64,000 nucleotides of DNA, from positions 32,001 to 96,000 of the IMG/VR virus record IMGVR_UViG_3300032236_000718. One strand, written 5' to 3'. Positions 3,652 through 29,174 of this stretch are shown piece after piece. Position numbers and translations under genes: made by a program. The stretch's first letter is position 1, and every line of letters starts with the position of its first letter. This DNA comes from a virus. Under the pieces are notes generated by a model. It was given only the letters and a program-made list of their open reading frames with translations, was not told where the DNA came from and ran no database searches.

Positions 3652-3680
3652 TGTACATTATGAAAATTATGATATATAGT
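3652..3680 (+). promoter_or_regulatory. Early promoter TGTACA-N17-TATAGT
   Basis: Member of the TGTACA -35 promoter family. Confidence 0.75.
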
Positions 3681-4651: not shown

Positions 4652-5614
4652 ATGACAAATAAAATATGGGGTCAATCTTTTGGCTATCACTATACAGTAG
4701 AGGGATCTAACTGTGATGTAGATAGTCTTAAATCATTTGACAAAGCACAACAGTTTTTAACAGAACTGTTGTTAGTTTATTCTGCTTATCCGATCATGGC
4801 ATCAGGTTATCCAAATGTTTTTAAGTATGCTCCGGACTCTGATGCATTAGCTATACACCAAGCTTTAGTCACTGGCATGATTAGTATCTACACTAATCCA
4901 AGTGATGCTACAATCTATTTTGACATGATGGTTAATAGGTCATTTAATCCAGAACCTGTAATAGAGATGCTGGCCAAGTATTTTGGTATGAAAGTCTATA
5001 AGACTAATCATATGCGTCGTCAAGCAGATCTTAAACATATATTCACTGGTAAAAATGAAGATGATATCATAAATCATATCATCACTGGACCTAATGTGAC
5101 GTTTAATGATATATTTGCGAGAGCATTACCAGATGGTCTCGTACTTGAGTTTGGTGTTGCGGAGGGTAAGTCTATTAGAGAGATGGCTGCAGCGGCACCA
5201 GATAGAAAGATCTGGGGATTTGACTCATTCCAAGGATTGCCAGAAGACTGGAAAGAAGATGTTGGCAAGGGTGCTTTTGCTTGTGATCCACCAACAGACT
5301 TAGCTGACAATGTCGAGTTAGTCGTCGGTTGGTTTAATGAGACACTAGAGCAATGGGCTGCAAATAATCCAGGCCATTTGTCTGTCATTCATCTTGATGC
5401 AGACCTATACTCATCGACAGACTATGTGATGCGTACACTCGAGGACAGGTTCGTCGATGGTACAATCATCGTATTTGACGAGATACACGGGCATCCTGAC
5501 CATAAAGACCACGAGTATAAGAACTTCCTAGAGTTCCTAGATCGCACTGGCTTTAAGTGGGAATGCTTAGGGCAACGCACGGGCGAAGCAGCCGCCTTTA
5601 GGATCTATAAATAA
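4652..5614 (+). CDS. Fusion of inactive AdoMetDC-like domain and TylF/MycF-like class I SAM methyltransferase
   Basis: N-terminal ~125 aa align with the adjacent SpeD; C-terminal LEFGVAEGKS, GFDSFQGLPE, VVGWFNETL, HLDADLYSST, IVFDE. Confidence 0.82.
   Translation: MTNKIWGQSFGYHYTVEGSNCDVDSLKSFDKAQQFLTELLLVYSAYPIMASGYPNVFKYAPDSDALAIHQALVTGMISIYTNPSDATIYFDMMVNRSFNPEPVIEMLAKYFGMKVYKTNHMRRQADLKHIFTGKNEDDIINHIITGPNVTFNDIFARALPDGLVLEFGVAEGKSIREMAAAAPDRKIWGFDSFQGLPEDWKEDVGKGAFACDPPTDLADNVELVVGWFNETLEQWAANNPGHLSVIHLDADLYSSTDYVMRTLEDRFVDGTIIVFDEIHGHPDHKDHEYKNFLEFLDRTGFKWECLGQRTGEAAAFRIYK
5606..5613 (+). promoter_or_regulatory. Late promoter TATAAATA
   Basis: Exact match upstream of speD. Confidence 0.65.
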
Positions 5615-5650
5615 AATCACCTTAAACAATGTACATAGGAGTACTGATAA

Positions 5651-6031
5651 ATGAGTGACTACTGGGGATATCACCTCGTTCTTGACGCATCAGGTTGTGA
5701 TGCAGCATCTATCGCATCTGCTGAGAATATCACAGCCTTTGCAAAGCAATTAGTTGTAGACATCGACATGGTTCCATATGGTGAGCCACAGGTTGTTAAC
5801 TTTGGTAGTGGTAACAAGCAAGGTTATACTCTCGTTCAACTCATTGAGACGTCAAATATCTGCGCACACTTTGTAGAAGAGAATAATACATTCTATCTCG
5901 ACGTGTTCTCGTGTAAGCCATACGATCCTGTAATCGTTATTGAGTTGACAAAGCAATACTTCAAGCACACTAACTATCGCACTGCGTTCCTTGAACGACA
6001 GGCACCACCTTCGGTAGAACCTACCAACTGA
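5651..6031 (+). CDS. speD: S-adenosylmethionine decarboxylase proenzyme (pyruvoyl-dependent, phage type)
   Basis: GYHLVLDASGC, QLIETSNICAH cleavage segment, YLDVFSCKPYD. Confidence 0.88.
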   Translation: MSDYWGYHLVLDASGCDAASIASAENITAFAKQLVVDIDMVPYGEPQVVNFGSGNKQGYTLVQLIETSNICAHFVEENNTFYLDVFSCKPYDPVIVIELTKQYFKHTNYRTAFLERQAPPSVEPTN

Positions 6032-6051: not shown

Positions 6052-7059
6052 ATGACTGAACAATATAATGCTTTTGAAGAGAATGAAATTTCAAAGAACT
6101 CACAAGGCGGCACAGAGATCACTAAGCGATCAATTGCTGCCTTGGTTGATCCAGAGTTAGCCAGTAACTTCCAGGTTATTCCTGCACGAGTTCGTGAGCT
6201 ACAAGACGATAAGATCCGTGTATACTGGCTGCATGACTTGGCTGAAGATCCTGAGGCTAATCACTTACAGAATGCCAATAGCCGTGATCGCTTCCATAAG
6301 TTTGTGTTCTCGAGCAACTGGCAATACCAACAGTATGTCGATAAGCTTGGCTTTCCACAAACAGTAGATGCTATCGTACTTGAGACACCTATCGAACCAT
6401 TCGAGCGTGTAGAGAAGAGCAAGGATGAAGTGCGTCTTATCTATTTCTCAACACCACACCGTGGATTAGAGTTGTTAGTTCCTGTGTTTGAGGAACTCGC
6501 AAAGCATCACGATAACATTCATCTCGATGTTTTCTCTAGCTATAAGATCTATGGTTGGGAAGATGCAGATGAGAAGTACGAGGCACTATTCGATCGTATC
6601 CGCAATCATCCAAAGATGACTTATCATGGATTCCAGCCTAATGACGTATTGCGTGATGCTGTCAGCAAGGCACACGTCTTAGCATATCCATCTATTTGGG
6701 CTGAGACGAGCTGCCGCGTATTGATGGAGTCGATGAGTGCCGGTCTGTTGTGTGTGCATCCTAACTTCGGTGCATTGGCTGACACGTCTGGTGGACTGAC
6801 ATCAATGTATCCATATGACACTAATCCAAATACTCACGCCAATATCTTCTACGCACATCTCAATGAGGCAGTCAACATTGTCAACACTGAGAATGCGCAG
6901 AACTATCTTGGCTTTGTTAAGTCATACGCTGATGCACGATTCAATATTCAAAAGGTATCTAGCCAATGGAATGCAATGATGCAGGGTCTATTGAAGCAAT
7001 ACCCAGACGCAGAGTCTAGAGCATTGAAGAAGAAAGAGATGTTTAGGTATAAAGTCTAA
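6052..7059 (+). CDS. GT-B glycosyltransferase (GT4-like)
   Basis: GGTE, WLHD, YFSTPHRGL, YPSIWAETSCRVLMESMSAG (Ex7E motif). Confidence 0.88.
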   Translation: MTEQYNAFEENEISKNSQGGTEITKRSIAALVDPELASNFQVIPARVRELQDDKIRVYWLHDLAEDPEANHLQNANSRDRFHKFVFSSNWQYQQYVDKLGFPQTVDAIVLETPIEPFERVEKSKDEVRLIYFSTPHRGLELLVPVFEELAKHHDNIHLDVFSSYKIYGWEDADEKYEALFDRIRNHPKMTYHGFQPNDVLRDAVSKAHVLAYPSIWAETSCRVLMESMSAGLLCVHPNFGALADTSGGLTSMYPYDTNPNTHANIFYAHLNEAVNIVNTENAQNYLGFVKSYADARFNIQKVSSQWNAMMQGLLKQYPDAESRALKKKEMFRYKV

Positions 7060-8051
7060 TGATTGTTACAAAGACTCCGTTAAGGATATCTTTCTTTGGA
7101 GGTGGAAGTGACATACCGCAGTACTACAACAAGTATCCGGGTATGGTCATCTCCACCTCTATTGATAAGAACATATACATCGCAGCCAATAAATGTCAGG
7201 CTAATCACTTCAAGATCATCTACTCACAGCTCGAGCTGACTAATCATAGGGTAGATATCAAGCATGATCGCATCAAGGCAATCATGGAATACTTTAATGT
7301 GTATGGCAATGTAGAGCTATGCAGCTTCTCTGATATTGACACAAGAGGTAGCGGACTCGGATCATCATCTACGTTTACTGTTGGTAGCCTACATGCTATG
7401 TTCGAGATGCTTGGCAAGAAGACTAATCGTCTTGAGTTAGCTGAGCTCGCGTCACATATCGAGATTAATATGTGCGGTGAGCCGATTGGTAAGCAGGACC
7501 AATATGCTGCAGCGTTTGGTGGTTTTAATGTGATTAGGTTCAACTCATCAGGAGTTGAGGTGAGACCTGTCTTTATTAAGCCATCTGTTGTTGAGGAGCT
7601 AAACGATAACTTATTGTGCTTCAACACTGGTGTCACAAGAGCAGCGTCTTCTGTGCTGAAAGAGCAGGTCAAGGGACTAGAGGGTGGCATTACGCAGAAC
7701 ACAACAATCAATCAGACATCCAGTCTTGTAGATATAGCTGAGGTAGCACTCAAGTATATAGAGAATGGACACTTAGATGACTTTGGTGCACTACTCGATA
7801 CATCATGGCGCATCAAGAAGAAGTTGGCTAAAAGCATATCAAATCCTATCATAGATATAATGTATGAGCAGGGAATGAGCTGCGGTGCACTAGGTGGCAA
7901 GCTGCTCGGTGCAGGAGGCGGTGGCTACATGCTGTTCTATATACCGAAGAGTAAACAGGCACAACTCAGAGAGACTATGGCTGAAGAGGGATATAAACAG
8001 ATGGACTTTAAGTTTACAGACAAGGGATCGACAGTGGAGCTATCAATATGA
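7059..8051 (+). CDS. hddA: GHMP sugar kinase, D-glycero-D-manno-heptose-7-phosphate kinase-like
   Basis: TPLRISFFGGGSD, GSGLGSSS, GKQDQYAAAFGG, GGKLLGAGGGG. Confidence 0.85.
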   Translation: MIVTKTPLRISFFGGGSDIPQYYNKYPGMVISTSIDKNIYIAANKCQANHFKIIYSQLELTNHRVDIKHDRIKAIMEYFNVYGNVELCSFSDIDTRGSGLGSSSTFTVGSLHAMFEMLGKKTNRLELAELASHIEINMCGEPIGKQDQYAAAFGGFNVIRFNSSGVEVRPVFIKPSVVEELNDNLLCFNTGVTRAASSVLKEQVKGLEGGITQNTTINQTSSLVDIAEVALKYIENGHLDDFGALLDTSWRIKKKLAKSISNPIIDIMYEQGMSCGALGGKLLGAGGGGYMLFYIPKSKQAQLRETMAEEGYKQMDFKFTDKGSTVELSI

Positions 8052-8638
8052 TTTTAAGCAAATACATTCACTATCTTAATCAAGCATTAGACACTATCGA
8101 CCAAGGCGATCATGCCGGTATGGTCTTTCATCTAACACACGCTGCTCGCACAAATAAGCCAGTCTATGTGTTTGGTAACGGAGGATCAGCTTCGACAGCA
8201 GACCACTTCGCGTGTGACCACTCAAAGGGTGTTTTAACAGACACAGACTTTATTCCTAATGTTATCAGCTTGAGCTCGAACATGGCATTGTTCTCCGCTC
8301 TAGCTAATGATATCGGTTATGACAGTGTGTTTAGTCACCAGCTCAGACACTTTCCTCGTGATAATGGAATAGCCATCGGTATATCAGCCAGCGGCAACTC
8401 ACAGAACGTACTTAATGGATTAAATCAGGCAAGAGAGATGGGATTCACAACCATTGGTTTGGTTGGATTTGATGGCGGTAAGATGAAGAGCGATAAAATA
8501 TGTGATATGCTAATCCATGTTAAGTCGACAAACTATGGGATTGTTGAGGACTGCCACTCGATCATCATGCATACCACATCTCAGGAGATACGTACAAGCA
8601 ATCTTAAGGGTGACCCTGACCATATCCCCAAACTATAA
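8048..8638 (+). CDS. gmhA: SIS-domain phosphoheptose isomerase
   Basis: FGNGGSASTADH, ALANDIGY, ISASGNSQN, GFDGG, VEDCH. Confidence 0.87.
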   Translation: MILSKYIHYLNQALDTIDQGDHAGMVFHLTHAARTNKPVYVFGNGGSASTADHFACDHSKGVLTDTDFIPNVISLSSNMALFSALANDIGYDSVFSHQLRHFPRDNGIAIGISASGNSQNVLNGLNQAREMGFTTIGLVGFDGGKMKSDKICDMLIHVKSTNYGIVEDCHSIIMHTTSQEIRTSNLKGDPDHIPKL

Positions 8639-12948: not shown

Positions 12949-13017
12949 GCACACCAGCGCATTTTTTTATGTACATTATCCCATTCTTATCGTACTGTAA
13001 GAATATAAGCTAACCAA

Positions 13018-13233
13018 ATGGATGAACGAATGTACGACTTAGAGCACGTCCTCTCCCTCACGAGATCTATACTCTCCAACGACAAGCACCAGCAGCTCAA
13101 CGCTGTGTTGGTAGCCAATATCGTAGACAAGAGTCACTGCGGTGACGGTTACTTCTCGTGGGACGGCATACTAGACGACCTGTCAGAGATACTCGGCTAC
13201 GATCGTGCAGCCGAGATACTAGCCAACTCCTAA
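13018..13233 (+). CDS. Hypothetical early protein (cassette 1)
   Basis: Directly after repeat promoter; start may be 13030. Confidence 0.7.
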   Translation: MDERMYDLEHVLSLTRSILSNDKHQQLNAVLVANIVDKSHCGDGYFSWDGILDDLSEILGYDRAAEILANS

Positions 13234-13244
13234 TAGGATCACGC

Positions 13245-13616
13245 ATGATAACACTACCAGCAGGCCGATACCTGATCGGCGACCTATGCTATCGCGACGA
13301 GTACGTGTGGGACCAGATGATCTCCACTAAGGGAATGAGTGGCACAGTACACATCCCATACGAGGGAACAGACCACTCCTTCGTCATTCTCAACACAAAA
13401 TACGGTGACGGTGCCTACGAGGACAACAACCAAAATGTCTATTATGTAGACAGCGGAACGATCGGTATCATGAGTTGGGATGAAGGCACAGGGTATAACT
13501 CACCTATGGCCAGAGTCTTCGAGTTTACAGAAAGCTTTCAGGTATACAATGACAAGGGAAAGCTGCACTTCGGCAATATCGTCATCGACACGGATCCAGC
13601 TCTAGTGCAGTCTTAA
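13245..13616 (+). CDS. Conserved phage hypothetical protein
   Basis: LPAGRYLIGDLCY, TKYGDGAY, VDSGTIGI; start ATG 13245 after AGGA. Confidence 0.75.
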   Translation: MITLPAGRYLIGDLCYRDEYVWDQMISTKGMSGTVHIPYEGTDHSFVILNTKYGDGAYEDNNQNVYYVDSGTIGIMSWDEGTGYNSPMARVFEFTESFQVYNDKGKLHFGNIVIDTDPALVQS

Positions 13617-13622
13617 CCAAAA

Positions 13623-13642
13623 TAGGTCCATATTAGGACCTA
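13623..13642. repeat. TAGGTCC/GGACCTA inverted repeat
   Basis: 7-bp stem, 6-nt loop; partial copy at 13693-13709. Confidence 0.75.
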
Positions 13643-13825
13643 ATTAAAACCGCATTAAATTAAACAAACGCGAGGTAAGGCTTCGCAAAAGCGTCCACAA
13701 TGGACCTAACCGCCCCTAGCGGTGCGTAAAAAAGTTCGTGTCAGGCGCATCTTTTTGTGTACATAAGCCACAAATCATCGTACTGTAAGAATATAAGCTA
13801 AAGCAAACACACACGGAGACACACG

Positions 13826-14053
13826 ATGAGCAATACATTCTCGGTAGCCTTAACCTTTAAGATCTCTGACTACACGCAGAGCATGCTGGACAACCTCGAC
13901 GGCTATGAGGACTACGCGGTCGAGGAGATCTCTCAGCTGTTCCAAGATCTATTAGAGCGTGAGCTGAAGCGTCAAGGCAGGACTCCTGAGCGGTTCATTC
14001 AAGATATCTGCATCAAGACGGCAGACACGATGAACGAGCTGATCGGAGAGTAA
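13826..14053 (+). CDS. Hypothetical early protein (cassette 2)
   Basis: CA-rich leader with GGAG RBS. Confidence 0.75.
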   Translation: MSNTFSVALTFKISDYTQSMLDNLDGYEDYAVEEISQLFQDLLERELKRQGRTPERFIQDICIKTADTMNELIGE

Positions 14054-14054
14054 G

Positions 14055-14082
14055 ATAGGTCCATTGTGGACCTATTTTTTTT
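14055..14082 (+). terminator. Intrinsic terminator-like hairpin of TAGGTCCA family
   Basis: ATAGGTCCA-TTG-TGGACCTAT followed by T run. Confidence 0.8.
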
Positions 14083-14168
14083 ATGTCACAGCGAAAATAG
14101 TTGTGTACATTATTCTCAACTTATCGTACTGTAAGAATATAAGCTGTGGTTACACTATGGAGACTGTC

Positions 14169-14333
14169 ATGAACATGTACACTAAGATGATCGCTGAGGT
14201 TGTAGGCTGTGACACGGATCGGGCACTGCGCATTCAGGACTATATGGAGTCTGACATGGATGTAGACTTCTCTGAGTCGTCTGAGCGTGCGCTGAAGACG
14301 CTGATCAAGATGGCTGCGGAGTCTGTGCAATGA
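14169..14333 (+). CDS. Hypothetical early protein (cassette 3)
   Basis: Start moved to ATG 14169 after GGAG; upstream part of the computed ORF is promoter. Confidence 0.7.
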   Translation: MNMYTKMIAEVVGCDTDRALRIQDYMESDMDVDFSESSERALKTLIKMAAESVQ

Positions 14334-14575
14334 GTCAGGAACTGATGATGCTGGAGCGGCTGCCTCTGGAGCGTGGCAAGCAGGTACTGAAGGAGCACCT
14401 GACTGAGGTGATCACTGATCCTGTTCAGCTGAAGATGATGCTGAACGACATCGACAGGAACTGCCGCAAGCCGTATGACGTGATGCGCATGTACTGGAAC
14501 AGCCGTCTGTCCTCTGAGGGTATGGGCGTGGCCAACTCTAGCTGGAGCCAGCGTAAAAAAGTTGTCGTGGGATAA
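14330..14575 (+). CDS. Hypothetical early protein
   Basis: ATGA coupled, GGAG RBS. Confidence 0.7.
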   Translation: MSQELMMLERLPLERGKQVLKEHLTEVITDPVQLKMMLNDIDRNCRKPYDVMRMYWNSRLSSEGMGVANSSWSQRKKVVVG

Positions 14576-14649
14576 AAATAGTTGTGTACATTATTCTTAT
14601 TATATCGTACTGTAAGAATATAAGTTGAACACACACACTGGAGACTACC

Positions 14650-15069
14650 ATGTCCACACGCTCGATGATCGCAGTCAATGATGAGACCGGCACCAAGGCA
14701 ATCTACTGCCACTTTGATGGATACCTTGAGAATGTCGGCATGAAGCTGCTGAATAACTGGAACACTCCTGAGCTCGTGAGTCAACTGATGGAGCTGGGAG
14801 ATCTCTCATCGCTGGGCACAGAGATCGGTGAGAAGCAAGACTTCGACCTACCTACCAACAGGGATTGGTGCCTAGCATACGGCCGTGACCGCAACGAGAA
14901 GGGAACAGAGGCAGGAACGTTCCACTCGCTCTTCTATGCCGAGGGAACTCACAAGGCAGTCGACTACTTCTATGTCTTTGAGAACGGCGAGTGGTCGTTT
15001 AAGCGCAATGGATACAAGTTCGGGTACTCATCCCTGAGAGAGTATGCCGAGGAACTAGCACAAAAATAA
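14650..15069 (+). CDS. Conserved phage protein (IYCHxDGY family)
   Basis: MSTRSMIA...IYCHFDGY..VG..L...GDLSSL. Confidence 0.8.
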   Translation: MSTRSMIAVNDETGTKAIYCHFDGYLENVGMKLLNNWNTPELVSQLMELGDLSSLGTEIGEKQDFDLPTNRDWCLAYGRDRNEKGTEAGTFHSLFYAEGTHKAVDYFYVFENGEWSFKRNGYKFGYSSLREYAEELAQK

Positions 15070-15157
15070 TTCGCATGACACTAAAATAGTTGTGTACATA
15101 ATCAGAAGATTATCGTACTGTAAGAATATAAGTTGAACACACACACTGGAGACTACC

Positions 15158-15472
15158 ATGAATAAAGACCGTACTCTCGCCCTCACCTACATCCTCACTG
15201 AAGCCGGTATCGATGACCTCAATGCAGTCTATGAGGCTGTGAAGGTTCGCCGTGAGGAGCTCGCCAAGCAAGTCAAGTACAGCATCGCCAAGGGCACCAA
15301 GGTGACATTCACCGCAAAGGGATCCCTCTACAAGGGTGTGGTCCTGTCCGTGAAGGTCAAGAACGCCGTGGTGGAGTGCGAGGTACCGGGCACTGCCTAC
15401 AACGGCAAGATGCAGAAGATCCCCAACACCATCGCCTATAACGTACCACTCAGCATGTTGAAGGTCGCATAA
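15158..15472 (+). CDS. Hypothetical early protein, possible SH3-like C-terminus
   Basis: Cassette promoter and GGAG RBS. Confidence 0.75.
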   Translation: MNKDRTLALTYILTEAGIDDLNAVYEAVKVRREELAKQVKYSIAKGTKVTFTAKGSLYKGVVLSVKVKNAVVECEVPGTAYNGKMQKIPNTIAYNVPLSMLKVA

Positions 15473-15555
15473 AAAGTTTGTGTGACCCGCACTTTTTTGT
15501 GTACATTATCTTATTCTTATCGTACAGTAAGAATATAAGCTGAATGGAGATTGAC

Positions 15556-15660
15556 ATGCTTACAGTGATCCTTGCCTACGCCCCCTTCATAGAGATAGCA
15601 CTCGGCGGCATTGCCGTCTGTGCAGTGTACGAGTTCTTCTTCATGGGAGACGCACAATGA
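15556..15660 (+). CDS. 34-aa hydrophobic micro-protein (not in ORF track)
   Basis: MLTVILAYAPFIEIALGGIAVCAVYEFFFMGDAQ; GGAG RBS directly after cassette promoter; ATGA coupled to next gene. Confidence 0.65.
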   Translation: MLTVILAYAPFIEIALGGIAVCAVYEFFFMGDAQ

Positions 15661-15869
15661 ACGTATCACAAGCCAGTCAGGTCATTGACAACCTTCGCAA
15701 CCGGTATAACTTCGGTCTCTTGGAGATGCTGGAGATCATGACAGACGAGTATGAGTCTGGTGGCCTCAGCTACTTCCGTCAGGTGTACAGCCTAGAGGAG
15801 CGTCAGGCATACAACGTCCTGATGGATGGCTTCCGCACCATGTTCCACGGCGATGAGGTGGCAGCATGA
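15657..15869 (+). CDS. Hypothetical protein
   Basis: GGGAG RBS, coupled. Confidence 0.7.
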   Translation: MNVSQASQVIDNLRNRYNFGLLEMLEIMTDEYESGGLSYFRQVYSLEERQAYNVLMDGFRTMFHGDEVAA

Positions 15870-16060
15870 TGCAGTCATACGTCATCATTGAGGTAGATCC
15901 TACCTACCGTGAGTCCCATGTAGTGGCAGTCTTTGACGATGAGGACGCTGCGTTTGAGGCCCGCAAGATCACTGAGGGCCGTCTCAGCGAGTCCATGAAG
16001 GACCGTGGTGTGTACCATAAGATCACGGTGTTTGAGACCAACAAGCTATACCGTGGGTGA
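15866..16060 (+). CDS. Hypothetical protein
   Basis: GAGGTG RBS, ATGA coupled. Confidence 0.7.
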   Translation: MMQSYVIIEVDPTYRESHVVAVFDDEDAAFEARKITEGRLSESMKDRGVYHKITVFETNKLYRG

Positions 16061-16071
16061 ATAGCTGCTAT
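16061..16071. promoter_or_regulatory. Palindromic operator ATAGC-W-GCTAT (copy 1 of 3)
   Basis: Copies at 16061, 16608, 19029, each 13 bp upstream of TGTAC -35. Confidence 0.7.
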
Positions 16072-16142
16072 GACAAGAATAGTGTGTACATAATCCGCAT
16101 TATGTCTTACTGTAAGAATATAATGATTATGGAGATTGAGAT

Positions 16143-16286
16143 ATGACTACCGTGTTTACTGGCCAGAAGGCCTACGTCACCCGCAAGGTTCGGGACTACC
16201 ACAAGCGTGGTTGGGCTGTCACCAAGTGCCACAAGCACCCAGACGGCTCTGAGACTTACGTGATGACGTATGTAGGAAAGCGGTAA
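16143..16286 (+). CDS. 47-aa basic protein (not in ORF track)
   Basis: MTTVFTGQKAYVTRKVRDYHKRGWAVTKCHKHPDGSETYVMTYVGKR; GGAG RBS after cassette promoter. Confidence 0.65.
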   Translation: MTTVFTGQKAYVTRKVRDYHKRGWAVTKCHKHPDGSETYVMTYVGKR

Positions 16287-16380
16287 GACCGCGCGCCCGG
16301 TGCGACTAGAGAGCACCCAGTAGGGGATCATGGCTAGCCGTGCTTCAGCGATTGATAAGCACCGGGCAAACATTTTGGAG

Positions 16381-16593
16381 ATGATGATGAAGTACGACTA
16401 TCTAAGCATCGAGCAGCTTCGGTCTGCTCTGGACCACATGGAAGCCAACTACTCTGCCGCCATGGACGGTGGGGCATACGGCTTGGCTGACGCCTTCCTT
16501 GACAAGATCACCGGTCTTGCCAATGAGCTGGCACACCGCTTCGACCACCTCATAGAGCAGGATAGCTACTCCCTTGAGGAGACCTTCGCCTGA
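16381..16593 (+). CDS. Hypothetical protein
   Basis: GGAG then ATGATGATG; exact start among the three Met codons uncertain. Confidence 0.65.
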   Translation: MMMKYDYLSIEQLRSALDHMEANYSAAMDGGAYGLADAFLDKITGLANELAHRFDHLIEQDSYSLEETFA

Positions 16594-16607
16594 TAAGCAC
16601 CTGGGGT

Positions 16608-16660
16608 ATAGCTGCTATGACGAGAATGGTGTGTACATAATTGGTTTGATGAGATACATT
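16608..16660 (+). promoter_or_regulatory. Operator palindrome plus early promoter TGTACA-N17-TACATT
   Basis: Palindrome 16608-16618, -35 at 16632, -10 at 16655. Confidence 0.7.
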
Positions 16661-20344: not shown

Positions 20345-20373
20345 TGTACAAAATTCCCGATAAGGTATACAGT
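20345..20373 (+). promoter_or_regulatory. Early promoter TGTACA-N17-TACAGT
   Basis: TGTACA family. Confidence 0.7.
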
Positions 20374-20398
20374 GGGTCTATGATCAACGGAGGTAAAC

Positions 20399-20857
20399 AT
20401 GCACCCCACAGAGTACGAAGTAAATCGAATACTAATATGGATCTCTAGCCCCCAGGCAGATAAACCGTTTACGCGAGATACCATAATCAACCAGCTGGCG
20501 CCTATCAGCTTTAGACTCGTCGACTATATCCTTAATCGGGAGGTCAAGAGGGGCAGCATCTATAAGAGTGGCCCGACAGGTACGTACTACATGAGAAAGG
20601 ACTCAAACATGATGAGCGATATTGATAAGCGTCTGAGCGATCTAGAGGTCAAGTACAAGTGGCTCGAGGGAGTCGTGGCAAAGATGCACGGGAAGAAGCC
20701 AGAGAAGCAGCGACTGTGGAGTGCCACCGCCCCAATCCCTCGCGAGGTCGAGTATATCGACATCATGTACACTGACGGTCGTGTCGTTGAGAACCACTAC
20801 ATCGGTAAGATGCCTCTCGTGGGAAGTGACGTGCTGGCGTGGCGGGAGGCTAAGTGA
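20399..20857 (+). CDS. Hypothetical protein, possible N-terminal winged helix
   Basis: GGAGGT RBS. Confidence 0.65.
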   Translation: MHPTEYEVNRILIWISSPQADKPFTRDTIINQLAPISFRLVDYILNREVKRGSIYKSGPTGTYYMRKDSNMMSDIDKRLSDLEVKYKWLEGVVAKMHGKKPEKQRLWSATAPIPREVEYIDIMYTDGRVVENHYIGKMPLVGSDVLAWREAK

Positions 20858-21018
20858 TGAATATCAGGGTCTTACACTTCTTGATGACAGTAGTATTCGT
20901 GGTGCTGGGATGCACTCTACTGGGTTACGGAACAAACTGGCAGGTAGGCACAGGCACCTTCTTCATCATATGGGGAGCTGGCGGTCTACTAGAGGTCTTA
21001 TCGAATAAGGTGCAATAA
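20857..21018 (+). CDS. 53-aa two-TM membrane protein (not in ORF track)
   Basis: MNIRVLHFLMTVVFVVLGCTLLGYGTNWQVGTGTFFIIWGAGGLLEVLSNKVQ; GGAGG RBS. Confidence 0.6.
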   Translation: MNIRVLHFLMTVVFVVLGCTLLGYGTNWQVGTGTFFIIWGAGGLLEVLSNKVQ

Positions 21019-21019
21019 C

Positions 21020-21283
21020 ATGGATGAGGAAGTAAAAAAGCTCTGTGACGACCTGTGCACCGAGTGGGTCAAGAGCAATACAAACACCCCTATCCGCATG
21101 TATGAGTACACGCTCTCGGGTCGCGCTGAGAATAAGCTAGCCAGTCTCGGTAATGAAGTAGGTCGCCTACGCCGAGAGGCCGTTGTACTCAAGACAGAGT
21201 CCGAGACCTGGAAGCAGTGCTACCTCGAGCAGGTGAGAGAGAACGTATTGATGCAGGCATCTATCCTTAAAGGAGATAAGTAA
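21020..21283 (+). CDS. Hypothetical coiled-coil protein
   Basis: AAGGTG RBS. Confidence 0.65.
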   Translation: MDEEVKKLCDDLCTEWVKSNTNTPIRMYEYTLSGRAENKLASLGNEVGRLRREAVVLKTESETWKQCYLEQVRENVLMQASILKGDK

Positions 21284-21429
21284 TGAGCAACGATAAGATC
21301 GAGGAGTTTGCCATTCGAGTTGCTCTGGGCAACAACGGCGGCAAGTGGGCTACCCACTACAACGAGGACCAGAAAGAGCACTGGCGTCAGTTCATACGTG
21401 ACCTAATCAAGGAGTTAGACAATGAATAA
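21283..21429 (+). CDS. 48-aa hypothetical protein (not in ORF track)
   Basis: MSNDKIEEFAIRVALGNNGGKWATHYNEDQKEHWRQF...; AAGGAG RBS, TAATG coupling. Confidence 0.6.
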   Translation: MSNDKIEEFAIRVALGNNGGKWATHYNEDQKEHWRQFIRDLIKELDNE

Positions 21430-21841
21430 CCTATCACTAGTGATCTACCTAGCAGAGGTGATACCAAATATCGGTGGCATCTTTCTGTTCACGACGATCT
21501 TTTCTGTAATCGTGACGGTCATATCTGGCATCGTCTATCTAGTAAGTCGAACAGAGGCATATGAGTCTGAGCGTATGGGGCACAAGCACTTCCGCCTACA
21601 GGAGGAAAAGAATGCGGCCTTGGGTGCTAGGATCTTCCGATGGGCAACAGTGGCATTCTGCGTGTCAGTCATTCCAGCCAACATAATTCCCAAGCGCGAC
21701 ACCATCATGATGATCGCTGCGTCCGAGTTTGGCGAGACCGCCCTGAAGAGCGACGACGTTCAGGAGATCGTCAACCCTGCCAAGAAGATCCTCAAGAACT
21801 GGATCAACGACCAGCTCGCCCAGTCGGAGAAGAAGAAATGA
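21422..21841 (+). CDS. Two-TM membrane protein
   Basis: Two hydrophobic stretches; AAGGAG RBS. Confidence 0.75.
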   Translation: MNNLSLVIYLAEVIPNIGGIFLFTTIFSVIVTVISGIVYLVSRTEAYESERMGHKHFRLQEEKNAALGARIFRWATVAFCVSVIPANIIPKRDTIMMIAASEFGETALKSDDVQEIVNPAKKILKNWINDQLAQSEKKK

Positions 21842-22110
21842 TGGTGCACACGACAGACGACGATGACTTATGGTTCAAGAAAAGAAAGCTTGAGGGTAGC
21901 AAGCTTACACTCGAGGTGTCTCAGAGAGTAGTCGAGAAGTTCCAACGGCTCATTGGGTATTTGAGTCCTAATGACTGGCAAGAGCTCGACGCTAAATTGA
22001 TCGACTTCTCCGAGAAGATGGAGTATAAGTACCGCGTGAGCGAGTGGAAGTGCCCTATTAATATGAAGGGATGCAAGAGCAACTGTGGAGACTATGGCTG
22101 TGGCAACTGA
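21838..22110 (+). CDS. Hypothetical protein with Cys-rich C-terminus
   Basis: Start moved to 21838 (ATGA coupling); ends CPINMKGCKSNCGDYGCGN. Confidence 0.6.
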   Translation: MMVHTTDDDDLWFKKRKLEGSKLTLEVSQRVVEKFQRLIGYLSPNDWQELDAKLIDFSEKMEYKYRVSEWKCPINMKGCKSNCGDYGCGN

Positions 22111-22330
22111 TATCCCTGAGGAGTTCAAGATCGTATCTGAGGACGTCGACGCCTACCTTGAACGGCTGAAGAAGATCCTATCACTAGAGCAGCGTAACGG
22201 CAGGTACCGTGACTTCGTCATGTCCTTCGCCAACGAGCCCATGGAGATGAGCTTCGAGAAAGTTCCTGTACAGTACGACTACTGGAGGAGAATGGCTCGT
22301 CAACTATTAAATGAGTTGGAAGATGAATAA
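22094..22330 (+). CDS. Hypothetical protein
   Basis: GGAG RBS before MAVATD. Confidence 0.6.
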   Translation: MAVATDIPEEFKIVSEDVDAYLERLKKILSLEQRNGRYRDFVMSFANEPMEMSFEKVPVQYDYWRRMARQLLNELEDE

Positions 22331-22334
22331 GATG

Positions 22335-22362
22335 TGTACAAAACCACAGATCTGTGTATAAT
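22335..22362 (+). promoter_or_regulatory. Early promoter TGTACA-N16-TATAAT
   Basis: TGTACA family. Confidence 0.7.
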
Positions 22363-22394
22363 AGATATATCAAACAGCAAACAGTGAGTACATC

Positions 22395-22655
22395 ATGAAC
22401 AAGCGTAAACTAGTGACAAACAGAGAGGACTACAATATGGAAGACTATGACAACTACCACGTAGACTGCAGCTTCAGCTTCAACCAGACTGGGCACCACG
22501 ACGAGCGTTTCCCTGACACCAACATGATTATGACCTTTGACGCCACAGACGCTACTATCGACACGATGTGCCGCCAGTTCGAGACCCTTCTCAGGGCAAT
22601 GGGTTATGTCTTTGACGGTCGCCACCTCGCAATGGTCGACGGAGACCCGATGTGA
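22395..22655 (+). CDS. Hypothetical protein
   Basis: Downstream of promoter; start could be 22437. Confidence 0.65.
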   Translation: MNKRKLVTNREDYNMEDYDNYHVDCSFSFNQTGHHDERFPDTNMIMTFDATDATIDTMCRQFETLLRAMGYVFDGRHLAMVDGDPM

Positions 22656-22915
22656 GACTCGCAGAGCGAATGCTAGAGATGAGCCGCGGCATCGACCTAG
22701 ACCTTCGGGAGCTAGCTCGAGCCGCCTACTACATCGATCAGCTAGAGGCTAAGGTCGCGCAGCTGACAGCCGAGCTGGACAGCTATACTGTAAAGGATGT
22801 TACAGAAGAGGTCATGGACGTGGCCTACTACGATAACCTTCTCAAGCCTGTAATTACAGACGATGAGGAGAGACTCGCTAAGGCCAAGGAGTATGCTGAG
22901 AAGGGAATAGGATAA
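22652..22915 (+). CDS. Hypothetical coiled-coil protein
   Basis: GTGA coupled, GGAG RBS. Confidence 0.65.
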   Translation: MRLAERMLEMSRGIDLDLRELARAAYYIDQLEAKVAQLTAELDSYTVKDVTEEVMDVAYYDNLLKPVITDDEERLAKAKEYAEKGIG

Positions 22916-23205
22916 TGAACCGTCGTAGTCTATTTGGTGCTATTGCACTATCACCGCTCATGGTGGCTACCTCCTTTGCTAAGGAAGAGGTAACTGGTCA
23001 ACCGCTGAGTGAGTCTGTCAACCTCACACTACTCGCCGCTAAGAAGCCTGACGGTGAGATGATGCGACTCAGTAACGGACCACTTGTATCTTTTAATATG
23101 CCTCAAACTGATCCGGACAAAGCTGTATCTATGGCGGTAGGAGACGACGGTAACCTCTGGCTAAAGCGTAAAGACGGCCAGTGGAAGAGAGTAGCCACCG
23201 AGTAA
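22915..23205 (+). CDS. Putative exported protein with twin-arginine-like signal peptide
   Basis: MNRRSLFGAIALSPLMVATSFA. Confidence 0.65.
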   Translation: MNRRSLFGAIALSPLMVATSFAKEEVTGQPLSESVNLTLLAAKKPDGEMMRLSNGPLVSFNMPQTDPDKAVSMAVGDDGNLWLKRKDGQWKRVATE

Positions 23206-23226
23206 TAAATATCCCCGAAAGGGGAT
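23204..23226 (+). promoter_or_regulatory. Late-promoter variant AATAAATA overlapping RBS-occluding GAAA hairpin
   Basis: ATCCCC-GAAA-GGGGAT ends 4 nt before ATG 23231. Confidence 0.55.
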
Positions 23227-23230
23227 TATC

Positions 23231-23464
23231 ATGCCTGTCACCTGCGACTACCTCGCAGTGCAGTGGGATAATACAACATGGGTACGGCACGAGATGTGCC
23301 AATTCGCCAAGAGACAAGACGGCGTTGACGGTGTCTATATAGGTGCACGCTTAGAGTTTAGACCTATACTGTCAATGGACCAGGGCAAGTGCGTGGACAT
23401 GGACAAGCAGACCCATGCTCGTTACAAGATAGGTGACGTGGAGTGGGTTTGCGTAGTTAGGTAA
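23231..23464 (+). CDS. Hypothetical protein
   Basis: AAGGGG RBS. Confidence 0.6.
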   Translation: MPVTCDYLAVQWDNTTWVRHEMCQFAKRQDGVDGVYIGARLEFRPILSMDQGKCVDMDKQTHARYKIGDVEWVCVVR

Positions 23465-23473
23465 GGTATATTA

Positions 23474-24643
23474 ATGGCGCTATACATAGACCCAGATAGG
23501 GTAAGAGAGATCTCCAAGAAACTAAAGACCGGTAAAGTGTACTCTATACAGTCGACCGATGTTGTAGAACACGCCTCCGCATATGCTGCATATAGGGAAG
23601 TCGGAGGACGCGTAATGGTATTGCCTCCACATCTTACGAACGAGTACAAACAATTTGTTCAGGAATATGTCGATGACGAGTCGCAGTACGGGACTAGTGG
23701 TGTTATCGTCATGACTTCCGGTACGACTGGAAACCCCAAGATAGTAATACACAACCTAGATTCTTTTCAAAGTTGTGATATCATGATCTCGGAGTGGGGA
23801 ATAGATGAGCACACTAATGTAATAGCTACTCCTCCACCATTCACCTCTTTTTTCTGGGCCTTAATGCATGCATCATACAACTTAAACGGTTGCTCTAGAG
23901 CTATTCACGCTACTAGAGATACATTAGTAGACATTGTTGAGGAGTCTAGAGGTAGTAAATTCATCATGTTAGCCTCTCCAGGATTATTAGACTTACTAGA
24001 GGCGTCTTCTACTCACATTGACTTCTCTGGTATGGAGAGGATGATGATGGGTGGAAGTAAGATGCTAGATAGACATGTAGACATTGCTTTTAGCAGAGGT
24101 GTCAACAAGATCGTATATCAATATGCTAGCACAGAGATTATTGGTGGCCTGTACAGCTATATCCATAAAGATACTCCCAGAGAGCACTATGAGACTCTGA
24201 GTGAATCCTCAATGGGTAAGACAATACGTATAGTAGATGGTCTTCTCATGGTAAAGGGTATTGGACTAGCCAAAAATCTTCATCTTGACGATCAGGGATA
24301 CTATAACACTGGAGATATGTTTAATGTCGAGAGTGATGGTCGATATAGGTTCTTGGGCCGTGTCGACGACATGATAAAGCTAAATGGACTAAAGTGCTTC
24401 CTTACTAAGATTGAGGAGGAGTGTGAGAGGATTGGTCTTATAAACACTCTCGCAGTACCGAGACAGAGGATGGGCGTAGAATATATAGAATTACAATATA
24501 CAGACTCTACTAGGACTATCGATATCCTCTCTCTAAAGAGGGAGTTAAAGGACCTGTTATTAGACCAAGAGATACCTCGAGCCTACACTAAGGTCGACAG
24601 CATTAAAAAGACTCCTCTCGGTAAGAAGATTAGGAGACTTTAA
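23474..24643 (+). CDS. Adenylate-forming (ANL superfamily, acyl-CoA synthetase-like) enzyme
   Basis: MTSGTTGNPK P-loop, YASTE, TGD, GRVDDMIKLNG, KTPLGKK. Confidence 0.88.
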   Translation: MALYIDPDRVREISKKLKTGKVYSIQSTDVVEHASAYAAYREVGGRVMVLPPHLTNEYKQFVQEYVDDESQYGTSGVIVMTSGTTGNPKIVIHNLDSFQSCDIMISEWGIDEHTNVIATPPPFTSFFWALMHASYNLNGCSRAIHATRDTLVDIVEESRGSKFIMLASPGLLDLLEASSTHIDFSGMERMMMGGSKMLDRHVDIAFSRGVNKIVYQYASTEIIGGLYSYIHKDTPREHYETLSESSMGKTIRIVDGLLMVKGIGLAKNLHLDDQGYYNTGDMFNVESDGRYRFLGRVDDMIKLNGLKCFLTKIEEECERIGLINTLAVPRQRMGVEYIELQYTDSTRTIDILSLKRELKDLLLDQEIPRAYTKVDSIKKTPLGKKIRRL

Positions 24644-24651
24644 AATAGTTG

Positions 24652-24680
24652 TGTACAAAATCCCCATCTTGGTATAATAT
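24652..24680 (+). promoter_or_regulatory. Early promoter TGTACA-N17-TAATAT
   Basis: AAAATAGTTGTGTACA UP/-35 shared with cassette promoters. Confidence 0.7.
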
Positions 24681-24706
24681 CAAAATATAACCAAGGAGAC
24701 ACACAC

Positions 24707-25813
24707 ATGGTCAGAGGCGTAAATCTAAAGGGTAAGCCCAAGCAGAAGGTAGCTCGTAAGACAAAGTCCGAGCAGTACCTCGTTAACTTCAAGTATCTAG
24801 GCGACGAGCCAGACTCCAACTTCAAGACAGTGTCCGATCAGATCCGTGCCTTTAACTGGTACAACGCCATGTGTGAGATGGATGAGGCACGCGCGTATCT
24901 TAACGACTACCTGACAATCACGAACCGTACAGACCTATCCAAGAAACTGGATAAGGTCCCAGACTCGTTCTTCCCTACCACAGCCGCGTGGATGGCACGT
25001 ATCGCGCAGCGCAAGAAGTCCTCCATCGAGCCGCACGAGTATGACAAGTTCATGGGCCTAATCGAGACCTCTATCTCTCACGTCAAGGAAGAGAAGGCAG
25101 AGACTAAGAAGGTCGACAAGCCAAACATTCAGGATCGTATTCGCGAGCGTGGTTACGACATCATCGGCGACATCGAGGAGATGATTGATAAGGGAGAGGC
25201 ATTCTCGCTATATGAGTGGCTCAAGAAAAATGAGATCCCTGCTATGTACGCTACAAAGATTGGCGACTACTATGGCGCTGTCTGGAAAGAGATCGTCGAT
25301 GCCCAGTCAGGAACTATCGACGGCTACGAGAAGTGGACAAAGGCTCAGCTCAAGGCACGAGTAGCTTTCTACCTACAACTCATCGACGACGCTGAGCGAT
25401 ATGGCGACAACACTAAGAAGACACGAGCACCTCGTAAGAAGAAAGCTCCGACTACAGAGAAGCTGCTCAAGAACTTCAAATATCAGAAAGAGAGCAATGA
25501 GCATAAGCTTACATCTATTAATCCGGAGTCTATCATTGGTGCAAAGACTCTTTGGACTTTTAATACGAGGTATAGCACTCTTAGTGTTTATAATGCTATG
25601 GGTCCCAGTGGTCTCAGTGTTCGCGGCACTACCCTTACTAATTTTGATGAGTCAAGTTCTAAGGCTATTCAAATAGGTCGTAAGACACAAGAGCGCATCG
25701 AGACTGTACTGAAAGGTGGCAAGATCGTAGTCAAGCGTCTCATTGAGGAGATGAAGAATGACGTTAATGGTCGCATCAATGAGAATACTATTCTATTAAA
25801 GGTGATCAAATGA
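24707..25813 (+). CDS. Conserved T4-like phage hypothetical protein
   Basis: AFNWYN, SINPESIIGA, FNTRY, GLSVRGTT, NGRINENTILLK. Confidence 0.75.
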   Translation: MVRGVNLKGKPKQKVARKTKSEQYLVNFKYLGDEPDSNFKTVSDQIRAFNWYNAMCEMDEARAYLNDYLTITNRTDLSKKLDKVPDSFFPTTAAWMARIAQRKKSSIEPHEYDKFMGLIETSISHVKEEKAETKKVDKPNIQDRIRERGYDIIGDIEEMIDKGEAFSLYEWLKKNEIPAMYATKIGDYYGAVWKEIVDAQSGTIDGYEKWTKAQLKARVAFYLQLIDDAERYGDNTKKTRAPRKKKAPTTEKLLKNFKYQKESNEHKLTSINPESIIGAKTLWTFNTRYSTLSVYNAMGPSGLSVRGTTLTNFDESSSKAIQIGRKTQERIETVLKGGKIVVKRLIEEMKNDVNGRINENTILLKVIK

Positions 25814-26244
25814 AGATACTAAATGAGTGTAGCTTTATCAAGCCAGAGAACATCGCTAAGATTGAGGAGCAATATAAGGCTACGTACGTGTTCGAGACGT
25901 GCCTGCGTGCACGTGAGGGCGGGTGGGCAAACTTCCCTGCAGCGGTCTTCTATCAAGAAGAGATTTATCCTGGTGGTTCGAACTACTTTGCCCTGTATTA
26001 CGACATGGATGGTAAACTATACATCACTGACGCCGGTCCCTCTATCATCGATGAGGAGTTTACAGGCCTAGAGGCTGAGGGCGAGGTAGTATACTCTCGC
26101 TATAGACACGACTATCGTGCAGGAAAGAATGGAGCATATGTAGACGGTGGACGAGATTATTTTAAGTATGGGGGCGATTCTTTTGATGATTACAATATTG
26201 TCAAGTTTAAAGTGGTAGACGATCACCTTGAAATTGTAAAATAA
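25810..26244 (+). CDS. Conserved phage hypothetical protein
   Basis: YSRYRHDY...VDGGRDY. Confidence 0.75.
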   Translation: MKILNECSFIKPENIAKIEEQYKATYVFETCLRAREGGWANFPAAVFYQEEIYPGGSNYFALYYDMDGKLYITDAGPSIIDEEFTGLEAEGEVVYSRYRHDYRAGKNGAYVDGGRDYFKYGGDSFDDYNIVKFKVVDDHLEIVK

Positions 26245-26247
26245 GTG

Positions 26248-26279
26248 TGTACAAAATATCACACTGTGTGTTATAAATA
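26248..26279 (+). promoter_or_regulatory. Composite early (TGTACA) and late (TATAAATA) promoter of tmRNA
   Basis: TGTACA 26248, TATAAATA 26272. Confidence 0.75.
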
Positions 26280-26284
26280 ATATA

Positions 26285-26598
26285 TGCTGTTGTTGATGAC
26301 GAAAGCAGAATAGACATACTGGACGCGGGGGCGGTACCCGCCCGGTCCACCATGGATACACAAACACCCTGCGAGATTGTTGCTTTAGGGTAGGGTGACA
26401 AGAAATAGAACAGCAACTAATACTTGTTTTATTTGTGTATCTTTGATGGGCCGGAAATTAGGATCGACAGGTGTGTTAAAAGCGGACCGAGACAGAAGCA
26501 TAAATAAGTTATCTGCAAACGATAATTCACCTATTGAAATGCGCCTAGCGGCATAATTTCTTGGGTTGGCAACTTACCTCGAAACAGAAAAGTTGCAC
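26285..26598 (+). ncRNA. ssrA: Two-piece (circularly permuted) tmRNA, alphaproteobacterial type; tag ANDNSPIEMRLAA
   Basis: Acceptor piece with T-arm GCGGG-GGCGGTA-CCCGC and CCGGTCC-A-CCA (ends 26352); coding piece starts GGGCCGG (26448), giving G3.U70; tag ORF 26515-26556; outer ends approximate. Confidence 0.95.
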
Positions 26599-26629
26599 TT
26601 CACACAAACAACAAACACAGGAGACTACA

Positions 26630-26845
26630 ATGACAAAAACACCTTTTGAGATTCGTTTTGATCTTCTCAACTATGCGATGAGCCAGCTAACTGGCGAGTA
26701 TTATGCAGCCTTGGAGCGCATACGAGAGTCAACACAAGAAAATTCACCAGCTCGAAACGATGCGGTAAATCAATTAAAATATCCTACTAAGAGTGACATC
26801 ATCCTTTTAGCAGAGGATTTAAAAGCCTTCATTGACAAAAAGTAA
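26630..26845 (+). CDS. Conserved phage hypothetical protein
   Basis: MTKTPFEIRFDLL; CA-rich leader and AGGAG. Confidence 0.75.
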   Translation: MTKTPFEIRFDLLNYAMSQLTGEYYAALERIRESTQENSPARNDAVNQLKYPTKSDIILLAEDLKAFIDKK

Positions 26846-26846
26846 T

Positions 26847-26923
26847 GGTCTCATAGCTCAGCTGTATAGAGCAGCCGCCTTCTAAGCGGCAGGTCGTTGG
26901 TTAGAGTCCAACTGAGATCACCA
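26847..26923 (+). tRNA. tRNA-Arg(TCT) with U19-A56 elbow
   Basis: GGTCTCA/TGAGATC acceptor, GCCGC-CTTCTAA-GCGGC, encoded CCA. Confidence 0.93.
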
Positions 26924-26939
26924 ATGTGGAGTTCTGGGT

Positions 26940-27110
26940 ATGAATGACTTGAGTAACTACTCCGTCGATGTCTTAAAGAAGACATGCTTTCAAGATGAGT
27001 TGTCAAGCTTAAGAGTTAAGTACCCAGAACCCGATAATTTAACACGCATCATTATGGATTACCTTGATCAGCGCATCAAGGAGATCGACAAAAAATATAA
27101 GATAAAGTGA
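26940..27110 (+). CDS. 56-aa hypothetical protein (not in ORF track)
   Basis: GGAG upstream; overlaps a long hairpin. Confidence 0.45.
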   Translation: MNDLSNYSVDVLKKTCFQDELSSLRVKYPEPDNLTRIIMDYLDQRIKEIDKKYKIK

Positions 27111-27121
27111 AAGGATACCTT

Positions 27122-28669: not shown

Positions 28670-28673
28670 TATT

Positions 28674-28765
28674 GGGGGTGGGTGTTGGTACACAGGGAGG
28701 CCTTATAAGCCTTTCAGCGGCAGATTACCGTTCTCGAGGGGGTTCGAATCCCTCCACCCCTACCA
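28674..28765 (+). tRNA. Non-canonical (allo-tRNA-like) tRNA with UAU anticodon and long variable arm
   Basis: GGGGGTG/CACCCCT-A-CCA; D arm GTGT-TGGT-ACAC; 7-bp anticodon stem around CT-TAT-AA; V-arm AGCGG/CCGTT; TTCGAAT. Confidence 0.85.
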
Positions 28766-28782
28766 AATTCTAGGAGATAGTT

Positions 28783-29079
28783 ATGCCGACTATTACTACT
28801 GATGTTGATTTTGATCTAGACAACATCGATGACTATGAGCTCATAGATGAGCTAGAGAGTCGTGGATATGATGTTATTGAGAGAGGTAGATCAGATGAGG
28901 ACCTCATAGAGATTCTAGAAGGTCATGGATTTACAGTATACGGCACGGGTCATAAGCCAAACATTACAAGATACTATGTCGAAAAGCTCTATGATACATA
29001 CAAGACAATGTCTCCCGAGTTTTTTCAGAAAGAGCTAAAGAAATTCTTTCGTGAACATCTAGAAACGACAGATTACTAA
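28783..29079 (+). CDS. Acidic hypothetical protein with internal duplication
   Basis: DDYELIDELESRGYDV / SDEDLIEILEGHGFTV; AGGAG RBS. Confidence 0.7.
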   Translation: MPTITTDVDFDLDNIDDYELIDELESRGYDVIERGRSDEDLIEILEGHGFTVYGTGHKPNITRYYVEKLYDTYKTMSPEFFQKELKKFFREHLETTDY

Positions 29080-29082
29080 TTC

Positions 29083-29158
29083 GGGGCTATAGCTCAATGG
29101 TTAGAGCCGGCCGCTCATAACGGTCTGGTTCCAGGTTCGAGTCCTGGTGGCCCCACCA
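29083..29158 (+). tRNA. tRNA with CAT anticodon, most likely tRNA-Ile2 (lysidine)
   Basis: 76-nt cloverleaf; GGCCG-CTCATAA-CGGTC anticodon arm; paired 1-72 and no GGG/CCC initiator stem. Confidence 0.88.
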
Positions 29159-29174
29159 AAATTAAAGGAATGAC

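Follow-up and report, generated by a model that had tools for sequence, protein, structure and literature searches.

The window, by which we mean the whole stretch of 64,000 nucleotides analysed here, covers positions 32001-96000 of a virus record that is 164,428 bases long and 99% complete. The window genes for NrdB, glutaredoxin (grx), RNase H and PhoH identify the virus as a T4-like myovirus, and the T4-type capsid, portal and sheath genes, as we read them, also mark it as one. Two adjacent open reading frames on the plus strand, at 4652-5614 (320 aa) and 5651-6031 (126 aa), had been singled out in a preliminary description as a dead decarboxylase-methyltransferase fusion beside an intact S-adenosylmethionine decarboxylase (AdoMetDC), and both reading frames are present. 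Judged from its reading frame, Pfam matches and predicted fold, the first gene encodes a dead SpeDC-derived domain (about residues 9-125, positions 4676-5026) joined to a SAM-dependent O-methyltransferase domain of the TylF/MycF/NovP/CalS11 type (about residues 135-320, positions 5054-5611). The second encodes an intact class 1b SpeD homologue, which its signature marks as a probable pyruvoyl L-ornithine decarboxylase (SpeDC). Further downstream on the same strand, profile matches point to a GT4 glycosyltransferase (6052-7059), an HddA-like heptose 7-phosphate kinase of the GHMP family (7059-8051) and a GmhA-like sedoheptulose 7-phosphate isomerase of the SIS type (8048-8638), the latter two scoring under their equivalog cut-offs.

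The N-terminal domain of the fusion protein is a paralogue of the neighbouring protein. Residues 11-125 align with residues 6-118 of ORF 5651 at 27% identity (E 2e-12), and the profile-profile comparison of the two gave a probability of 99.3% (E 1e-20). The Pfam family AdoMet_dc scores above its cut-off for both proteins, with 34.4 bits (cut-off 25) on residues 13-123 of the fusion protein. AlphaFold2 modelled the domain with the class 1b SpeD fold (pLDDT 89.5), and the best structural match was the AdoMetDC from Thermotoga maritima (TM 0.77). Because the alignment used for this model included live homologues, we refolded the whole protein from the seven fusion sequences alone, which resulted in the same strands and helices and again matched the T. 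maritima enzyme. The dead domain scores higher as SpeDC (24-38 bits) than as SpeD (7-20 bits), indicating that it is a dead SpeDC.

Within residues 9-125 the fold is present and the catalytic residues are gone. The serine that becomes the pyruvoyl cofactor, Ser68 in ORF 5651, is replaced by Gly75 (4874-4876), a glycine in all seven fusions, and the catalytic Cys88 by Asn95 (4934-4936), as had been noticed from the sequence; at this position two of the seven fusions have Asn and the other five Asp. The catalytic histidine, overlooked in the preliminary description, is lost as well, His73 being replaced by Tyr80 (4889-4891) and by tyrosine in every fusion. Thr60 corresponds to Ala67 in the window copy, with Ala in five and Ser in two of the seven sequences. 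The domain retains G11, Y12, E/D17, T74, Y89, D91, R123 and A125.

The preliminary description had taken the intact neighbour for an AdoMetDC, but ORF 5651 reaches only 38.5 bits on the TIGR03330 equivalog model (cut-off 75.65) and bears the SpeDC signature instead. Ornithine is the substrate of many SpeD homologues from phages and bacteria (Li et al. 2023, PMC10407285; see PMC9992855 for phage enzymes), and Gln, Thr, Phe and Tyr residues are diagnostic of these enzymes (PMC10407285). All four are found in ORF 5651 as Gln63, Thr67, Phe74 and Tyr82, the positions having been mapped through Fig. S5 of PMC10407285, which names the residues in its text, and through a gene of Ca. Electrothrix. The QLIETS motif of ORF 5651 is the one found in the ODC (ornithine decarboxylase) domains of the same figure. 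Ser68, His73 and Cys88 are present and invariant among 51 homologues, and two marks of class 1b AdoMetDC are absent: Thr67, not Glu, precedes Ser68, and Glu76 occupies the position of the proline that follows the histidine. ORF 5651 scores 146-156 bits on bacterial SpeDC-type profiles against 27 on an equally deep SpeD-type profile, and its length is close to the 117-122 aa of the ODCs characterised from freshwater phages. With the Ca. Electrothrix gene it shares 45% identity. That gene lies upstream of casdc and casdh; this is the arrangement given for characterised SpeDC (PMC10407285), and it is the arrangement that links the Electrothrix gene to that activity. The genome, 99% complete, yielded no match for speE or for genes of the HSS or DHS type.

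Clade membership by itself leaves the substrate unfixed, since the true AdoMetDC of phage phiN3 falls within the ODC clade (PMC9992855); HTVC201P likewise shows that the substrate can differ near this clade (PMC9992855, PMC10407285). The phiN3 enzyme, 32% identical to ORF 5651, has Asp where ORF 5651 has the diagnostic Thr before the serine. Judging from these sequence features, ORF 5651 is very probably a SpeDC, that is, a pyruvoyl ornithine decarboxylase producing putrescine. With an ODC as the most likely neighbour, neither of the two roles suggested earlier for the pair, channelling of decarboxylated SAM or coupling of SAM depletion to methylation, applies. A different arrangement occurs in Microcystis phage MaAM05 (L013:2486-5264, MW495066), where two SpeD homologues accompany speE and speB as reported for Vampirovibrio; the second SpeD homologue fits neither the SpeD nor the SpeDC profile clearly and could be an arginine decarboxylase.

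The C-terminal part of the fusion protein is TylF/MycF-like, in agreement with the preliminary description: Pfam TylF (PF05711) matches with 52.4 bits (cut-off 23), Methyltransf_24 matches too, and the domain resembles CalS11, NovP, SpnH and MycF in both sequence and fold. It shares with these enzymes the SAM-binding motif and the acidic metal/base motifs, including D249, D251, D276 and E277, which we take to serve as metal and base (catalytic) residues, whereas its catalytic domain is shorter than theirs and the SpeD-fold partner replaces their usual N-terminal part. Mycobacteriophage proteins (O-methyltransferases PHROG 6608 and 8858) are 44-47% identical to it. Aminopropyl transfer, which had been proposed as one activity of the fused transferase, finds no backing in the domain, which has the TylF motifs and produced no alignment with a SpeE from a phage record (E 0.2); the Spermine_synth family (PF01564) has no match anywhere in the genome. 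The enzyme would use ordinary SAM for O-methylation of a sugar, probably a heptose or the glycan built by the GT4 enzyme.

In related phages, the same locus contains grx, WYL and speDC, followed by a variable cassette. Between speDC and the GT4 gene, loci L021-L120 encode a cytidylyltransferase, an SIS isomerase, a GmhB-like phosphatase, a transaldolase, an epimerase, methyltransferases, GT4 and HddA. The cassette of these T4-like phages is a near-complete route from sedoheptulose 7-phosphate to nucleotide-heptose, of which we found no published description in a literature search. GmhB, transaldolase and HddC have no match in the genome studied here. A cytidylyltransferase encoded far from its heptose genes (G000:C1:3895-4323, L171) is a homologue (51%) of the cassette gene of the relatives and may supply the nucleotide-activation step. 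Two protein families of the cassettes, of about 277 aa in nine loci (e.g., L026:5383-6216) and about 419 aa in two (e.g., L056:5369-6628), match neither Pfam nor PHROG entries. A standalone methyltransferase of 182-202 aa is present in 13 of 34 cassette loci, and eight such standalone enzymes group with the fused methyltransferase domains (SH-aLRT 86, which is weak). These standalone relatives presumably work without a dead domain, and methyl transfer itself would therefore not depend on it.

The fusion is conserved, as the preliminary description had required, in seven phage sequences that are 60-92% identical overall; in the most distant one, identity drops to 39% in the dead domain. As six other sequence clusters carry it, a frameshift, a wrong reading frame or an assembly artefact can be ruled out. 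For pairs with an estimable dS, the dN/dS of the dead domain is 0.07-0.23, indicating purifying selection, compared with 0.04-0.11 in both the methyltransferase domain and the live enzyme. With values far under 1, neutral decay of a duplicate was likewise discarded. In the tree of phage SpeDC-type proteins the dead domains all fall into a single clade, whose stem measures 3.2 changes per column, so that the sequence history of the domain appears as a burst of change followed by conservation.

In every locus for which DNA or a gene table was available, the fusion gene lies directly upstream of the intact homologue, followed, where the contig extends far enough, by GT4, the HddA-like kinase and the GmhA-like isomerase. 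We found no fusion outside the one clade in a search of 5.8 billion proteins, a search of 1.84 billion representatives, IMG/VR and the JGI metagenomes; the last three protein searches covered lengths of 176-560 aa or pattern matches only, and a standalone dead domain could have escaped them. Neither a dead copy nor a TylF gene occurs within 3 kb of 80 SpeDC loci in prokaryotic genomes, and in 32 syntenic relatives speDC is present but a dead copy is not. Among the long proteins considered as possible fusion relatives (P0009-P0011, P0013 and P0014), the three inspected are repeat proteins, and we took the set as chance matches.

We infer that the dead domain arose by local duplication of speDC, even though the sister of the dead clade is unplaced in the tree and origin from the adjacent gene is therefore unproven. 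Given the standalone methyltransferases in the cassettes and their grouping with the fused domains, the fusion most simply joined a speDC duplicate to a cassette methyltransferase within the locus. One locus (L018) combines a fusion allele near that of L009 (91% identity in the dead domain) with a speDC identical to that of L006; the alleles are thus reshuffled by recombination between the two genes. In an unrelated phage, a weakly SpeD-like reading frame (L090:1153-1563, 22 bits) lies just upstream of SpeDC and is possibly a second, independent duplicate.

The region also carries promoter-like sites, all on the plus strand. A match to the T4 late promoter consensus, TATAAATA, at 5606-5613 overlaps the last codons and the stop codon of the fusion gene upstream of speDC, where it may function as a late promoter. 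Such a site lies between the fusion and speDC in every fusion locus and is absent from unfused methyltransferases with similar C-termini. Across the whole window the late motif occurs no more often than expected by chance, so the weight of this site comes from its conserved position. Another T4-type late motif, at 2859-2866 ahead of a nucleotidyltransferase gene, could allow read-through into the fusion gene. At 3652-3680, ahead of the run consisting of grx, WYL, a hypothetical gene and the fusion, we located a putative sigma70-type early promoter, TGTACA-17 nt-TATAGT, which is the same in three relatives; L009 has TTGACA at the same place. On the coding strand, TGTACA followed by a TATA-like box is found repeatedly, at 3652, 8646, 12970-16632 and 20345-29403 of the window and elsewhere in the genome, and this repetition, together with the TTGACA of the relative, suggests that TGTACA serves the phage as the -35 element of early promoters. 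With the early-type site upstream and the late-type site at its end, the fusion may be made early, and SpeDC and the heptose genes may be boosted late.

Does the dead domain pair with the live enzyme, as the preliminary description had proposed? ESMFold2 placed the dead domain and SpeDC face to face in the canonical manner with a score of 0.72 (best control 0.01), the runs agreeing in at least 90% of contacts and the partners having a pLDDT of at least 82. Among 80 solved complexes, 58 reach the mark used; among 110 mismatched pairs, 2 do. However, the SpeD homodimer of T. maritima is already solved, and the pass therefore shows a dimer-like face and not binding of this particular pair. The heterodimer is thus structurally possible in the model, which likeness to the known homodimer can explain, whereas activation of the neighbour is unlikely for the reasons given below. 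Residues of the predicted dimer face are more often invariant than the rest (17 of 42 versus 16 of 76, Fisher p 0.02); as interface residues are also core strand residues, this counts as weak support, and it agrees as well with self-pairing as with cross-pairing. On both sides the Arg-Asp/Tyr contacts between subunits are retained. Several dead-specific interface residues are fixed or nearly so (Val62 to His and His73 to Tyr in 7/7, Leu64 to Ala in 6/7), and the interface core of SpeDC shows no clade-specific change, such changes being peripheral only.

The architecture of the active site bears on what such a pair could do. In the human enzyme, the cleaving half contains Ser and Cys, and the non-cleaving half contributes His243 and Ser229, both needed for processing (PMC1282579, PMC3975893). 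In prokaryotes two identical halves make up the dimeric enzyme, in which His68 of T. maritima is essential for processing (PMC10407285) and Ser55 dispensable (PMC3975893). As the site is built from both halves, an activating dead subunit should retain the His and the Ser/Thr, as in a class 2-like pair with a single site. The dead half in the window has neither, and, lacking the partner-serving His, would form a heterodimer with one site devoid of Ser, one devoid of His and none complete. From its residues, the dead domain could act as a brake on SpeDC, and activation of the prozyme type, as originally envisaged, is unlikely. Comparison points the same way: the 32 syntenic SpeDCs without a dead neighbour have the same interface core, and five phage ODCs of the ORF 5651 kind were active when purified alone (PMC9992855). 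The trypanosomatid prozyme displaces an autoinhibitory N-terminal extension of its partner (PMC5201418), and ORF 5651 has no extension of this kind. One caveat is the dispensability of Ser55 in T. maritima, and another is that subunits processed as a homodimer could exchange afterwards.

By analogy with human spermine synthase, we tentatively favor the view that the dead domain pairs with itself and dimerizes or stabilizes the methyltransferase, a plausible reading to which we give a little less than even weight. In one phage clade, a speDC duplicate would have lost its catalytic residues and been fused to the sugar O-methyltransferase resident in the cassette. The dead domain would have retained the sheet-to-sheet dimer face, with Tyr80 filling the former active-site pocket, and its partner would be a second copy of itself, through which the methyltransferase becomes dimeric or more stable. 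SpeDC would meanwhile make putrescine, probably boosted late in infection, and the methyltransferase would O-methylate its sugar from ordinary SAM. The loss of the partner-serving His and Thr is accounted for, since a self-pairing scaffold has no need of them. A Foldseek search matched human spermine synthase over the whole length of the fusion (E about 1e-5), and the AdoMetDC-like domain of that enzyme is a non-catalytic dimerization domain (PMC13700777). Against self-pairing stands the predicted pairing of the dead domain with SpeDC, a protein it should meet in the cell.

The phage fusion and human spermine synthase both combine a non-catalytic AdoMetDC-fold N-terminal domain with a class I SAM-binding transferase (PDB 3C6K, 3C6M for the human enzyme). 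They differ in that the transferase of spermine synthase is an aminopropyltransferase using decarboxylated SAM, whereas that of the phage is a TylF-type sugar O-methyltransferase, and in that the dead phage domain derives from SpeDC, the fusion having arisen independently. Dimerization through the domain is demonstrated for the human enzyme and presumed for the phage fusion.

A possible but doubtful alternative is dominant-negative: the dead domain would heterodimerize with the SpeDC proenzyme and block its self-processing or catalysis, perhaps also tethering the methyltransferase to the ODC. Tyr80 and Ala67 would then take the places of His73 and Thr60, which are needed for a complete site, and by symmetry the register of the model (residue 71 opposite residues 76 and 78 of the dead domain) would place Tyr80 over the cleavage site. 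The retained cross-subunit contacts and the modelled heterodimer suit this idea, the latter with the reservation about its likeness to the T. maritima homodimer. The fixed changes on the dead side of the interface, with SpeDC unchanged, also fit escape from cross-pairing. Adjacency of the two genes in every locus seen agrees with a functional pair, but tandem duplication and conserved gene order explain it too. The placement of the promoters suggests how a brake might be timed, with early fusion protein and read-through SpeDC holding putrescine down until the late promoter at 5606 gives SpeDC in excess. The full version of this idea, a timing switch in which early dead domain traps the ODC proenzyme in site-less heterodimers until the late promoter frees putrescine synthesis, with polyamine supply and glycan methylation linked in one polypeptide, we regard as unlikely. 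The promoter alone could time the ODC, and continued fusion to the methyltransferase is left unexplained by inhibition.

Two further roles appear improbable to us. In one, the vestigial site would bind putrescine or ornithine and tune the methyltransferase, so that glycan methylation would follow the polyamine level. There is precedent in human AdoMetDC and the Trypanosoma brucei prozyme, which bind putrescine between their sheets, as the titles of PDB entries agree. Asp at the Cys position in five of the seven fusions and the invariant Thr74-Gly75, Tyr89 and Asp91 would suit a binding site, but the window copy has Asn at the Cys position, the site-lining positions 82 and 84 vary, and Tyr80 would occupy the pocket. 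With much the same low probability, the dead domain has an unrelated job, such as binding a phage structure or the molecule that the methyltransferase modifies, or is no more than a tag for folding and solubility. The very long stem branch after the duplication agrees with a new role, as do the invariant dead-specific residues off the dimer face (W6, K27, Y43, S44 and P47) and a three-residue insertion near residue 50. However, conservation is enriched on the former dimer face, and an unpaired sheet face would lie exposed.

Hardly any weight is left for the model of the preliminary description, in which a prozyme-like activator of AdoMetDC tethers the transferase and channels decarboxylated SAM to it: a dead paralogue does adjoin a live one, a heterodimer can be modelled by likeness and the phiN3 enzyme of the ODC clade is a true AdoMetDC, but the SpeDC signature, the lack of speE and a TylF-type transferase unlike SpeE led us to reject channelling, and the lost His, the partnerless syntenic loci and the missing autoinhibitory extension count against activation.

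Like the trypanosomatid system (PMC5201418), the phage locus encodes a dead paralogue beside a live AdoMetDC-fold enzyme. The trypanosomatid proteins, however, belong to class 2: each has two domains, they associate edge to edge, and N-terminal autoinhibition is lifted, while the phage proteins belong to class 1b, whose single-domain subunits share active sites, with a probable ODC as the live enzyme and a dead copy without the His that would be needed. The closest precedent for the degradation itself is the fusion of SpeD with a degraded SpeDC from Victivallis vadensis (PMC10407285, Fig. S5), which also has Gly at the Ser position and has lost His and Cys; this bacterial domain has a live SpeD as its partner instead of a methyltransferase, and no separate live SpeDC is described with it. 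ORF 5651 itself resembles the published SpeDCs (PMC10407285, PMC9992855) in the four diagnostic residues, the Ser, His and Cys, and a genome without speE, and its ODC identity is read from these similarities. What distinguishes the fusion clade is the dead duplicate on a separate polypeptide, which is absent from those papers.

Dead SpeDC domains in bacterial SpeD fusions and dead AdoMetDC-fold domains on transferases, as in spermine synthase, are thus already known. In our literature search no published methyltransferase with a fused dead SpeD or SpeDC domain came up, and the combination in a phage, on a TylF enzyme and confined to one small clade, therefore appears to be new. Pseudoenzymes have barely been described in phages, and here a virus has repeated, apparently not long ago, the event from which the layout of human spermine synthase arose. 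Should inhibition of the ODC be its role, the dead domain would represent a pseudoenzyme with which a virus restrains polyamine synthesis. As fused and unfused versions coexist in related phages, the contribution of the fusion is directly testable.

Outside the window, a nucleotide-modification cluster (G000:C1:146381-153546, L170) encodes a MazG-like pyrophosphatase, a DUF1599 protein, a thymidylate-synthase-like enzyme, an unassigned 394 aa protein, a PLP enzyme and a member of PHROG 13881. As no aGPT-pyrophosphorylase match was found in the cluster, we claim no link to putrescine modification of DNA; the gene content of the cluster suggests a modified base.
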